Source: a virus (Duplodnaviria; Heunggongvirae; Uroviricota; Caudoviricetes). From it: 7,865 nt of DNA. The position numbers were made by a program, and so were the translations under genes. The stretch lies in IMG/VR virus record IMGVR_UViG_2690316115_000018. One strand, written 5' to 3'. The notes beneath the pieces were generated by a model. It saw only the letters and a program-made list of their open reading frames with translations. It was not told the DNA's origin and made no database searches. This document shows, one piece after another, positions 4,573 to 7,798 of this stretch (within the stretch, counting starts at the first letter, position 1; every line of letters starts with the position of its first letter).

Positions 4573-5307
4573 ATGGAGACTGTTTTTGACGCACTGAAAG
4601 CGATGGGAAAAGCCACGTCGGTAGAGCTGGCTGCGCGACTTGATATCAGTCGTGAAGAAGTACTGAACGAGCTGTGGGAACTGAAAAAGGCTGGCTTCGT
4701 TGATAAAAGCGTATACACCTGGCGTGTGGCTGATAACAACGTTCAGCAGGAACAGCCAGCGCCAGAAGAAACCACCACGGCAACAGAAGCGAAAATCTCA
4801 GAGTGCGATTTAACCGCGACGATTGAACAACGCGGACCACAAACGGCGGATGAACTGGCTACGCTGTTCGGTACAACATCCCGCAAAGTTGCTTCAACGC
4901 TGGCAATGGCAATCAGCAAAGGTCGTCTGATTCGCGTAAACCAGAACGGTAAAATTCGTTACTGCATACCAGGTGATAATTTACCAGCAGAGCCGAAAGT
5001 TGAATCGGTAGCGGAAACCGATGGTAAAGCCTTTCCTCAGCCAGCCGGTGTTGCGTTACCGGTACAGAAAGATGCAACACAGGAAGATATTAAAACAGAA
5101 ACTGTGGCGGACATTGTGCAGTCGCTGCCATCGTTTACTGCAACGCGAGAAGATGATTTGATTTTGCCATCGCTGCATATGGCAAATCGCGAACTGCGTA
5201 GGGCGAAGAATCATGTCCAGAAGTGGGAGCGAGTCTGCGCCGCGCTGCGGGAGCTGAACAAGCACCGGGATATGGTTGCCGGGATTTGTCGGAAGTCCGG
5301 GCAATGA
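4573..5307 (+). CDS. hypothetical phage protein, winged-helix-like N-terminus (possibly DUF1627-type)
   Basis: 244 aa; GGGAGG RBS 6 nt upstream of ATG; N-terminal 60 aa and a second segment ([31 protein letters not shown]) look like wHTH units; family name is recollection only. Confidence 0.65.
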
Positions 5308-5468: not shown

Positions 5469-5915
5469 CGCGATAACGGTCAAAAATTATGGCGCTGACA
5501 CTTTTGTGCCACTGGAGATGACTGTACCTAAGTTCAGGGGAGAAGAACACGTCCGGTGGGATGGTCGGGCCAGATTTAAAGGGCAGGTCATGGCTCCAGC
5601 CTGTACGCTGGCAATGGAGGCTGCCTGGCGGGAAATTGATATGGGAACCACGCCACTCAGGGATTTACTGCCGGTCCAGAGAATAAATTCCTGTTACGGT
5701 TACACCACTGTGATCTTGCAAGTGCAGGAAAGTAGGTCTACACGGTAACGCGAGTGCGTGTAACTTTTGATGTCATTCCCGTAGAAACACCGGACAAATT
5801 TTCGCTGACAGGTCATGCAGAAGGTATAAATCTGCAGATTATGGACAATTACGGATATCCGGCAAGAGCCGGAAAAAGCATGCCGCCTCTAATTCTCAGT
5901 GGAAGATGGACTTGA
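5437..5915 (+). pseudogene. possible frameshifted gene remnant (open frames 5437-5748 and 5736-5915)
   Basis: GC-normal region whose open reading switches frame twice (frame of 5304, then frame of 5437, then frame of 5769); no good RBS for the 103-aa ORF (GTG start); no family recognised. Confidence 0.25.
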
Positions 5916-5974
5916 TTATACTCATTGCATTGTCAGAAATAGTTATCCATTAAAGGCTGGCTATTCCAAACAGG

Positions 5975-6002
5975 ATGTTGATTACAAAAATGTAATCAAC
6001 AT
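5975..6002. promoter_or_regulatory. 28-bp palindrome ATGTTGATTACA-aaaa-TGTAATCAACAT upstream of the binding-protein gene
   Basis: perfect 12-bp arms read directly; AT-rich region 165 bp upstream of the ATG; a TATAAT hexamer lies at 6029-6034. Confidence 0.4.
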
Positions 6003-6166
6003 GTAAGGTTTATACTCTTCAATATGCGTATAATTTTCCTTATTTTGTTGACTTTAAATAACAAGCTATGCACGAGGTAAAGTCGGATAAGTTTATCTGG
6101 ATGTAATATATATTATTTGTAGTGTTTATAACTTTATTTCATGATAACCAATAAAAGGAGTTTTTT

Positions 6167-6925
6167 ATGAGGAGCATAATGGCAGGTTTTTTAATATTCC
6201 TGTCTTCTGCTGCTTATGCTGATATCAATCTGTATGGTCCTGGTGGCCCGCATACAGCCTTGCTTGATGCAGCCAAACTTTATGCCGAAAAAACAGGTAT
6301 TATAGTGAACGTTCATTACGGCCCACAGAACAAATGGAATGAAGATGCCAAAAAAAATGCAGATATCTTGTTTGGCGCATCAGAACAATCTGCTCTGGCT
6401 ATCATTCGGGACCATAAAGACAGCTTCAGTGAAAAAGATATTCAGCCTCTTTATCTGCGAAAAAGTATTTTACTGGTAAAGAAAGGTAATCCTAAAAATA
6501 TCCGGAGTATTGACGACCTGACCAGACCTGGGATTGGCGTAATTGTTAATGATGGTGGTGGTACCAGTAATACATCAGGCACTGGCGTCTGGGAAGATAT
6601 TGCCGGACGTAAAGGGAATATAGAAACTGTCGCCGCAATCCGAAAAAATATTATTTTATATGCGCCCAATAGCGGAACTGCACGTAAGGCTCTTGAGAAT
6701 CAGCCTGGAGCAGATGTCTGGATAACCTGGGCTGACTGGGCAGCCAGTAATCCAGAAATTGGTGATGTCGTGGAAATAGCGCCAGACTACGTGATATGGC
6801 GTGATATGAACATTACAGTACGTCAGGATGCAAATGATGAAACCCGTCGATTTGCAGAATGGCTACAAACCGATGAAGCGGCGCCTGCATTCAAAAAATA
6901 TGGCTGGACCAGGAAAGGCACTTGA
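6167..6925 (+). CDS. secreted orphan periplasmic solute-binding protein, ModA-like (PBP type 2) fold; prophage moron
   Basis: 252 aa; AAGGAG 6 nt upstream of ATG; Sec signal peptide MRSIMAGFLIFLSSAAYA with AYA-D cleavage motif, no lipobox Cys; C-terminal FAEWLQTDEAAPAFKKYGWTRKG parallels my recollection of ModA (FYDYLKGPQAAEIFKRYGFTIK); low-GC gene with AT-rich upstream region; no permease or ATPase genes nearby. Confidence 0.75.
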   Translation: MRSIMAGFLIFLSSAAYADINLYGPGGPHTALLDAAKLYAEKTGIIVNVHYGPQNKWNEDAKKNADILFGASEQSALAIIRDHKDSFSEKDIQPLYLRKSILLVKKGNPKNIRSIDDLTRPGIGVIVNDGGGTSNTSGTGVWEDIAGRKGNIETVAAIRKNIILYAPNSGTARKALENQPGADVWITWADWAASNPEIGDVVEIAPDYVIWRDMNITVRQDANDETRRFAEWLQTDEAAPAFKKYGWTRKGT

Positions 6926-6928
6926 CAT

Positions 6929-6957
6929 CCTCGTCCTTCAGGACGTGGATTCTTTTT
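6929..6957 (+). terminator. putative rho-independent terminator after the binding-protein gene
   Basis: hairpin CCTCGTCC-ttca-GGACGTGG (one mismatch) followed by ATTCTTTTT, 4 nt after the TGA stop. Confidence 0.45.
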
Positions 6958-7044
6958 CCGGATGCCGCGCCAGCGGCATGTAGGGGCAGCTCACAAAACG
7001 GAAAAAATTGTACGCTAAGCCTCGCCAGGTGAACTGAATTCATT

Positions 7045-7068
7045 CCGATATGGGAATTCCCATATCGG
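7045..7068. promoter_or_regulatory. perfect 24-bp palindrome CCGATATGGGAATTCCCATATCGG upstream of the hok promoter
   Basis: reverse complement identical to itself; ends 12 bp upstream of the putative hok -35; function unknown. Confidence 0.4.
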
Positions 7069-7079
7069 GCGAAAACGGT

Positions 7080-7107
7080 TTGCTGTAACGGCAGAGTTAA
7101 GTAGGAT
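7080..7107 (+). promoter_or_regulatory. putative hok mRNA promoter (-35 TTGCTG, 16-nt spacer, -10 TAGGAT)
   Basis: hexamers read from sequence; places the transcript start at about 7111-7116, where the sequence GGTGCTTGAGGCTATCTGCCTC resembles the 5' end of plasmid R1 hok mRNA as I recall it. Confidence 0.45.
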
Positions 7108-7110
7108 TGC

Positions 7111-7260
7111 TGCGGGTGCTTGAGGCTATCTGCCTCGGGCATGAACACCAACGGCAGATAGATAAAAGCCCCACCCGACTATAAATCGAAGTGAGGCCCC
7201 TATATGCTCGTCACATATAGATTGCCTCTTACGGACCGAAAGGTCAAGGAGAAGCAGGCT
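7111..7260 (+). promoter_or_regulatory. hok mRNA 5' leader with tac-like hairpin and 5'/3' fold-back element
   Basis: hairpin GAGGC-tatct-GCCTC (7122-7136); alternative pairing CTATCTGCC (7125-7133) with GGCAGATAG (7155-7163); 5' end TGCGGGTGCTTGAG (7111-7124) is complementary to 3' CTCAACGCACCCGCA (7467-7481). Confidence 0.5.
7155..7215 (-). ncRNA. putative Sok-like antisense RNA (approximate bounds)
   Basis: by analogy to the sokC/mokC arrangement; minus-strand -35 TTGACC (rc of plus 7242-7247) overlaps the hok SD region, but the -10 at 17-nt spacing (CAATCT) is weak, and no clear terminator was found; existence not demonstrated. Confidence 0.3.
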
Positions 7261-7416
7261 ATGAAGCAGCAAAAGGCGATGTTAATCGCCCTGATCGTCA
7301 TCTGTTTAACCGTCATAGTGACGGCACTGGTAACGAGGAAAGACCTCTGCGAGGTACGAATCCGAACCGGCCAGACGGAGGTCGCTGTCTTCACAGCTTA
7401 CGAACCTGAGGAGTAA
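7204..7416 (+). CDS. Mok-like reading frame (in-frame N-terminal extension of Hok, 70 aa)
   Basis: ATG 7204 in frame with hok; extension MLVTYRLPLTDRKVKEKQA resembles my recollection of K-12 MokC (MLNTCRVPLTDRKVKEKRA). Confidence 0.5.
   Translation: MLVTYRLPLTDRKVKEKQAMKQQKAMLIALIVICLTVIVTALVTRKDLCEVRIRTGQTEVAVFTAYEPEE
7261..7416 (+). CDS. hokD: Hok-family type I toxin, HokD(RelF)-like, 51 aa membrane peptide
   Basis: MKQQKAMLIALIVICLTVIVTALVTRKDLCEVRIRTGQTEVAVFTAYEPEE matches my recollection of E. coli HokD and is close to HokC/Gef; AAGGAG 9 nt upstream; single transmembrane helix. Confidence 0.9.
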   Translation: MKQQKAMLIALIVICLTVIVTALVTRKDLCEVRIRTGQTEVAVFTAYEPEE

Positions 7417-7485
7417 GAGACCAGGCGGGGGAGAAATCCCTCGCCACCTCTGATGTGTCAGGCATCCTCAACGCACCCGCACTTA

Positions 7486-7517
7486 ACCCGCTTCGGCGGG
7501 TTTTTGTTTTTATTTTC
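7486..7517 (+). terminator. rho-independent terminator of hok mRNA
   Basis: hairpin ACCCGC-ttcg-GCGGGT followed by TTTTTGTTTTTATTTT. Confidence 0.75.
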
Positions 7518-7636
7518 AACGCGTTTGAAGTTCCGGACGGCGCCGGAATAGAATCAAAAATACTTAAGTAGCGCGCAGGGAGAAGAGGGATGGACCCCGA
7601 ACAGGGGAGTGCTATTTATCTGGAAGGATTCTGTTG

Positions 7637-7798
7637 ATGAGAATCGAAGAATTACGTGAAATTTTTAGTGAAGATGGCCTCTATACTGTGCGCGTTGAGA
7701 AGGGCGCTATTGTCAGCCACTGCCGTATTAAATGTTTACAGTCTCAACAAAGGAAGAGTGAACCGCCCCGGGAATCCTGGAGAGTGTTTTATCTGTGA
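7637..7798 (+). CDS. hypothetical small protein (53 aa)
   Basis: manually translated (below the ORF-track length cutoff): MRIEELREIFSEDGLYTVRVEKGAIVSHCRIKCLQSQQRKSEPPRESWRVFYL; GGAAGGA RBS 8 nt upstream; ATG overlaps the stop of a 15-codon upstream ORF (7590-7637) in a TGATG arrangement. Confidence 0.35.
   Translation: MRIEELREIFSEDGLYTVRVEKGAIVSHCRIKCLQSQQRKSEPPRESWRVFYL

Follow-up and report, generated by a model that had tools for sequence, protein, structure and literature searches.

At the right-hand end of the window, the whole stretch of 7,865 nucleotides analysed here, a hok toxin gene lies within a set of candidate RNA regulatory elements. It covers the immunity-replication-nin section of a lambda-like prophage, with genes in the order cI-like repressor, cro, a YdaT-like gene, an O-like and a P replication gene, DUF1627, a fimbrial pseudogene, paa, hokD and a rem-like ORF; past the rem-like ORF, the full locus continues with DUF968, RusA and Q. 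The hok locus is located in the early-right (replication-to-Q) region, in a lambda-like prophage of Shiga-toxin-producing E. coli that is of the PPompW type. The gene before hok is paa (6167-6925, + strand), which ends about 190 nt upstream of the proposed hok transcription start, and directly 3′ of paa there is a terminator-like hairpin (6932-6945, extended repeat 6927-6950). No relE-like frame was found ahead of hok in the window, as the initial annotation had remarked, and it is paa that occupies the preceding position.

The toxin gene, named hokD in RefSeq, occupies 7261-7416 on the + strand behind the Shine–Dalgarno (SD) sequence AAGGAG (7246-7251). Its product of 51 aa, MKQQKAMLIALIVICLTVIVTALVTRKDLCEVRIRTGQTEVAVFTAYEPEE, matches the Pfam family HOK_GEF (PF01848) over profile positions 1-42 of 42, with 82.9 bits (cut-off 22) and an E-value of 1e-23. 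Via the 100% identical genome of strain E2865, the protein is WP_000813254.1, the same RefSeq accession as K-12 HokD, and the toxin that had been described as HokD-like is thus identical to HokD of K-12. Residue 47 of HokD is Tyr, while other Hoks have Cys, and its TAC codon sits inside the sequence TACG (7399-7402). TACG is the motif for A-to-I editing by TadA, and K-12 hokD mRNA is edited to Cys (TAC to TGC) at a level of ∼6% (PMC5630033, PMC12214031). TadA editing of Tyr47 to Cys might tune the potency of the HokD toxin.

The open reading frame list also contains mok, a frame of 70 codons (7204-7416, + strand) that extends the N-terminus of hok in frame. The mok ATG at 7204 adds 19 codons to hok and has its own SD, GAGG (7193-7196), which lies 7 nt before the ATG and corresponds to the mok SD motif of R1 (PMC9841398). 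An in-frame extension of 19 codons is also present in the R1-type locus and in K-12 mokC, the stop of which is common with hokC; a Mok-like extension had been suggested earlier for this locus.

As a simple sigma-70 scan of 6900-7650 flagged neither the hok nor the sok promoter and returned a single site at 7525-7554, we used positional conservation as support for both promoters instead. The putative hok promoter (7080-7107, + strand) consists of the -35 box TTGCTG (7080-7085), a 16-nt spacer and the -10 box TAGGAT (7102-7107). In seven aligned loci with otherwise unrelated upstream DNA, the T, A, A and T positions of the -10 box are invariant, and TAGGAT aligns with TATAAT of hokC and TAGGAT of hokB, 7 nt ahead of the conserved 5′ end. 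The hok and sok promoters each match the sigma-70 consensus at only 7 of 12 positions. Weakness of the hok promoter fits with R1, where it is weak too. The initial annotation had proposed that hok has a promoter of its own, with a start near 7111; the promoter is upheld by its conserved position and -10 box, although the match to the consensus is weak, but alignment to R1 and hokC shows that +1 is likely 7114.

Rfam provides a second view of the leader. The family RF01794 ('sok') matches 7114-7263 on the + strand along its entire model (1-157 of 157) with 103.9 bits (gathering score 59, E-value 2e-23), and it is the only Rfam family matched anywhere in the window. Because the matched strand is the sense strand and the match stops at the hok AUG, the family models the leader of the hok mRNA, and a hit to it does not by itself show an antisense gene; we therefore rejected it as evidence for a Sok antisense RNA. 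We also aligned the leader of the window with those of an R1-type hok (a database copy encoding Hok of R1 at 100% identity), K-12 hokC, hokB and hokE, and two more hokD-type copies. Over its entire length, the window leader can be aligned with those of R1-type hok, hokC and hokB. The aligned elements are the -10 box, the 5′ end GGGTGCTTGAGGCT, GGCAGATAGA-AAAGCCCC, the mok ATG, GCCTCTTAC and CAAGGAGAAG-N-ATG, and the 3′ CCTCAACGCACCC also aligns in the loci that are not cut by IS elements. The leader thus resembles that of R1 hok mRNA, as had been noted, and it is untruncated when compared with these loci.

Downstream of the toxin gene, an intrinsic terminator of the hok mRNA is found at 7485-7512 (+ strand), where a stem–loop (7485-7502) with a 7-bp stem including five GC pairs and a 4-nt loop is followed by a T run. 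From the start of the Rfam model, the alignment with R1 and hokC and this terminator, the full-length hok mRNA, a mok–hok bicistron, would run from 7114 to 7512 on the + strand with a length of ∼399 nt. The interval 7080-7517 spans exactly the -35 box through the terminator end.

We folded the full-length RNA and a form trimmed at the 3′ end, and the results given here are thermodynamic predictions. The full-length RNA (7114-7512) has a minimum free energy of -166.3 kcal/mol, with z = -7.5 against shuffles. In its predicted fold, nt 1-12 form the translational activator element tac (GGGUGCUUGAGG, 7114-7125), which pairs with the fold-back inhibitory element fbi (CCUCAA-C-GCACCC, 7466-7478) in 12 bp with one bulged C. 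The fbi element lies 50 nt past the hok stop, with the duplex stretch beginning at stop+49, and a perfect 9-mer complementarity exists between 7111-7119 and 7473-7481, which together account for the long-range pairing of the two transcript ends that had been pointed out before. In the same fold, GCC.CAC of the region around ucb, the anti-SD of mok (AAGCCCC, 7166-7172), is predicted to pair with GUG.AGGC containing the mok SD, with G7168-C7170 involved in this pairing.

The 3′-truncated RNA (7114-7462, with the last 50 nt taken off) folds with z = -5.9. Here, nt 1-8 are predicted to pair with AAGCCCC at 7166-7172 (tac/ucb). The centroid structure also joins the mok SD, as part of GAGGC, to the dcb element GCCUC (7224-7228), with which this SD is paired in the open form. 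The mok AUG is then inside a 7-bp hairpin with the loop CUCGUCA, which is the Sok-target hairpin (7200-7220) and is predicted in both folds. This loop holds a YUNR motif (CUCG), and such a motif is read as a U-turn. A GC-rich 9-bp hairpin at 7424-7445, expected to become the 3′-terminal stem–loop of processed hok mRNA, also appears in both folds, and by analogy with R1 it would protect against 3′ exonucleases (PMC9841398). A closed-to-open rearrangement of the mRNA has been published for R1 (PMC9841398), and the predicted folds of the window reproduce this switch. Folding of the transcript, which had been proposed for 7111-7517, thus gives a closed full-length form and a truncated form that is predicted to open; all of these elements lie on the + strand.

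The predicted helices were compared across related loci. When 27 non-identical leaders, drawn from several genera, were folded to a consensus, the tac/ucb stem, an inner stem and the SD/dcb helix were recovered, with compensatory changes at five pairs. The SD/dcb helix (consensus columns 120-124/158-162) is kept in 25-27 of the 27 leaders, and tac itself is conserved across them, which agrees with the tac-like hairpin recognized originally in the leader. The tac/fbi duplex was tested in an alignment-free manner, by searching for the best partner of each locus's own tac in the 140-180 nt past the stop, in 40 loci (38 genome loci, the window and K-12 hokB). These loci come from Escherichia, Shigella, Kluyvera, Photorhabdus, Pantoea, Citrobacter and related Enterobacteriaceae. 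The start of the fbi duplex falls between stop+45 and stop+56 in 37 of them, which comprise the window, K-12 hokB and 35 of the genome loci. At this usual distance, fbi was not found in the other three, which are two hokC-type loci (L023 and L055) and the R1-type locus, where there is only a shorter tac pairing further downstream of the stop. Compensatory changes within the tac/fbi duplex were observed at position 4 (U:A to C:G in Photorhabdus and Pantoea), position 7 (U:A to C:G in hokB), position 11 (G:C to A:U in Citrobacter) and position 12 (G:C to A:U in Kluyvera, Photorhabdus and hokB). The form of tac/fbi in the window is the commonest one in Escherichia.

The antisense RNA was placed by transfer from annotated K-12 genes. 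The annotations of sokC, sokB and sokE all map by alignment to window positions 7158/7159-7212 on the minus strand, and the corresponding putative Sok (7158-7212) would be ∼55 nt long. In its predicted fold (-21.4 kcal/mol, z = -4.7), a single-stranded tail of 9 nt at the 5′ end precedes a long hairpin, which is followed by a U run; the tail, GACGAGCAU, is complementary to 7204-7212, which covers the mok AUG and the target loop. The putative sok promoter, also assigned by alignment (7219-7247, minus strand), is composed of the -35 box TTGACC (7247-7242), a 17-nt spacer and the -10 box CAATCT (7224-7219), which lies 7 nt before the proposed Sok start. Against the consensus, the -35 box matches at five of six positions and the -10 box at two of six. 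The sok -35 box and the spacing are conserved among the aligned R1-type and K-12 loci, with the promoter reading TTGCGC-17-TATCCT in R1 and TTGACC-17-CACTCT in K-12 sokC. The -10 box of the window is without the leading T of R1 and most other copies, and K-12 sokC shares this form, which is shorter by 1 nt. By homology to an accepted sRNA gene, we infer that Sok, on which the initial annotation had made its reading of a possibly functional system conditional, would be produced from the window. As a separate observation, comparison of the window with L009, L012, L018 and others shows two length variants of the Sok hairpin (window 7173-7192). The short one is that of the window, shared with hokC, R1 and part of the Photorhabdus and Citrobacter copies; the long one, found in many E. 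coli and Kluyvera hokD-type copies, has a 21-nt insertion (CGCGTCCTGCAAGACGC...) and an extra internal hairpin.

To place the locus among known hok systems, we compared it with relBE-hokD of K-12 (relF, Qin prophage). The two have an identical toxin, the 3′ UTR with fbi and the terminator is included in a sequence that is ∼99% identical from window position 7247 on, and both reside in a lambdoid prophage followed by a rem-like gene, DUF968/ydfU and the Q antiterminator. In contrast, the K-12 homology does not reach further upstream than 7247, a point 14 nt from the hok ATG, and K-12 hokD is thus devoid of the hok promoter, tac, ucb, the mok start, Sok and the sok -10 box, whereas the window has the full leader; in addition, relE ends 71 nt before hokD in K-12. 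A search of the 3 kb upstream in K-12, ahead of relB, found no remnants of the leader. The comparison thus agrees with the earlier impression that the arrangement differs from that of K-12, and it supports an autonomous locus with a HokD toxin, unlike relBE-hokD. Judged from these sequences, K-12 hokD is a derived form of the complete locus, truncated or rearranged, and it has been reported that K-12 hokD lost canonical components of the system by rearrangement (PMC12214031).

The closest characterized leader is that of hokC/mokC/sokC (gef), with nucleotide identities, taken from database loci, of 74% for the leader and 84% for the CDS. The SJC33 copy had been aligned lacking its 5′ leader, and we discarded its leader identity of 53.5% as an artefact of this. 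It shares with the window the length of the mok extension, the short Sok hairpin, the -35 box of sok and the shortened sok -10 box. However, hokC is a fixed chromosomal locus beside nhaA and is not prophage-borne, and IS186 truncates it in K-12 at the 3′ end, so that fbi is lost, while fbi of the window is intact. R1 hok/sok (parB) has the same elements in the same order, i.e. a weak hok promoter, tac, ucb, mok SD, in-frame mok, Sok target, dcb, hok, fbi and terminator. Its Sok is likewise antisense to the mok start region, and the switch predicted for the window is the one published for R1 (PMC9841398). The two differ in sequence: leader and CDS share only ∼52% of their nucleotides and the toxins 23 of 51 residues, and the R1 leader has an extra insertion of ∼17 nt in the tac hairpin loop. 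Furthermore, R1 hok/sok is plasmid-borne with proven PSK, whereas the copy in the window is prophage-borne. Among phages, the mEp460-type copies ('MokW'; phages mEp460, HannyBb and Evi) are ∼89% identical over the whole locus, but they carry the 21-nt insertion in the Sok hairpin, as does strain SJC33.

The distribution of the locus was examined in 5426 complete E. coli genomes, and a copy was counted as complete when one place covered at least 80% of 7100-7512, leader included. A match was found in 4721 of these genomes and a complete locus in 3472 (about two thirds), while K-12-type copies cover only 64% of 7100-7512. Per genome, the median is 2 copies and the highest number 10. The sequence over 7080-7520 is 100% identical in 10 deposited PPompW/Stx2a prophage records, where the gene is labelled 'gef: phage maintenance protein'. 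Prophages of the PPompW type are lambda-like and located at ompW in STEC O145:H28, and the paper describing them makes no mention of hok, gef or paa (PMC8112680). Related copies are present in 101 phage records, annotated as gef, Hok or 'MokW', and on phage-like plasmids such as pO111_2. Overall, Hok has been reported in ∼80% of Enterobacteriaceae genomes, with four-fold enrichment in prophages (bioRxiv 10.1101/2025.08.07.668861). The locus is therefore already known, and its exact sequence is deposited and annotated (RefSeq hokD; GenBank gef/MokW). Since the complete form is common and already annotated, the contrast with K-12 is no novelty; rather, relBE-hokD of K-12 is the truncated exception, with its breakpoint at window position 7246/7247. 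A map that places each element of the wild-type hokD locus precisely (tac, ucb, mok, dcb, fbi and Sok) is of modest practical value, and it can be used for work on hokD regulation, on TadA editing of hokD and on the role of Hok in prophages.

The best explanation of these data, to which we assign a probability of about 0.88, is that 7080-7517 is a structurally complete, canonical hokD-type hok/mok/sok type I toxin–antitoxin module in a lambda-like prophage. A complete locus of this type had been claimed by the initial annotation, and the elements that it listed are present where it had placed them, far beyond what chance would give. The poor consensus scores of the two promoters and the sok -10 box short of its leading T count against this reading. 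The mechanism that we propose is taken over from the R1 paradigm, while the elements and folds are those examined in this analysis. The weak promoter (-10 box at 7102-7107) would give a stable mRNA of ∼400 nt, in which fbi (7466-7478) would clamp tac (7114-7125) and ucb (7166-7172) would hide the mok SD (7193-7196), shutting out both ribosomes and Sok. Slow trimming from the 3′ end would take off fbi, upon which tac would capture ucb and dcb (7224-7228) would take up the mok SD, so that the hairpin targeted by Sok (7200-7220) would be presented. The open mRNA would then have one of two fates. Either mok would be translated from the ATG at 7204, with coupled translation of hok (7261-7416) into the 51-aa membrane toxin, or the mRNA would be bound by the short and unstable Sok (about 7212 to 7158) and destroyed. 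The toxin would be made only once the supply of Sok stops. In the prophage, such a module could plausibly serve to keep the element in its host or act as an abortive defence towards other phages. We consider it rather improbable that the lambdoid prophage junction to the left of the hok leader is a hotspot for cargo insertion, at which an intact hok/sok acts as an addiction or abortive-infection anchor that keeps cargo such as paa, the dCTP deaminase and relBE.

The module could be intact in sequence and still be a physiologically silent passenger, like the chromosomal hokA, hokB and hokC, that is kept up by hitch-hiking with the prophage. This is compatible with the main reading, and we regard it as possible but clearly the less probable state of the locus. 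Chromosomal hokA, hokB and hokC are reported, with reference to Pedersen and Gerdes, to give neither PSK nor rifampicin-induced killing (bioRxiv 10.1101/2025.08.07.668861), and because intact chromosomal hok loci failed to be activated in this way, completeness of the sequence does not prove killing activity. Silence would also fit with two promoters that are weak by consensus and with Tyr47 in place of Cys, which could limit toxicity given the low editing level in K-12. On the other hand, the regulatory RNA elements are all kept with zero disabling changes and their helices covary across genera, which argues for selection on the RNA switch, and the HokD peptide is among the literature-characterized toxic controls in an overexpression assay (bioRxiv 10.1101/2025.08.07.668861).

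It is much less probable that the toxin is expressed mainly by read-through from the paa operon, as K-12 hokD is from relBE, with the leader a relic and no control by Sok. The proximity of paa, on the same strand and only 190 nt upstream of the proposed +1, is consistent with such read-through, as is the failure of both promoters to pass the consensus scan. However, the terminator-like hairpin at 6932-6945 stands directly after paa, and a read-through transcript, its extra 5′ sequence included, would still hold the whole switch. Moreover, the hok -10 box and the -35 box, spacing and terminator hairpin of sok are conserved across subfamilies in which the upstream genes differ. A chance resemblance or a spurious ORF is the remotest of the alternatives considered; our analysis found nothing in its support, and it is opposed by the E-values of the Rfam and Pfam matches (2e-23 and 1e-23), the 100% identity to annotated hokD loci and the fold z-scores of -7.5 and -5.9. 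We therefore retain the structurally complete hokD-type module as the reading of 7080-7517.

Several features of the surrounding prophage were noted alongside the module. The paa gene belongs to the AcfC family of adhesins and is a virulence-associated gene of attaching-effacing E. coli; its product matches the Pfam family SBP_bac_11, a periplasmic solute-binding fold, with 118 bits. Between the replication genes and paa sit the DUF1627 gene and the fimbrial-protein gene (∼4573-5307 and ∼5472-6005), both of which the identical RefSeq genome annotates as pseudogenes with a frameshift or an internal stop. To the left of the hok leader (edge at 7085-7095), the cargo is variable in otherwise syntenic lambdoid prophages: it is paa here, an 'anti-phage dCTP deaminase' in SJC33 (L009, 1838-3475) and relBE in K-12 (L002, 2417-2943), where relBE also replaces the hok leader. 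A perfect 24-nt palindrome, CCGATATGGGAATTCCCATATCGG, is located at 7045-7068 between paa and the hok promoter. Among 63 loci it is present only in the identical strain locus, and we rejected it as part of the hok locus, as it lies outside the hokD-type homology, which starts at 7085-7095. Finally, the single site returned by the sigma-70 scan is a promoter-like TTGAAG-18-TAGAAT (7525-7554, + strand) just past the hok terminator, ∼80 nt before the rem-like ORF, which starts at 7634 and runs off the window.
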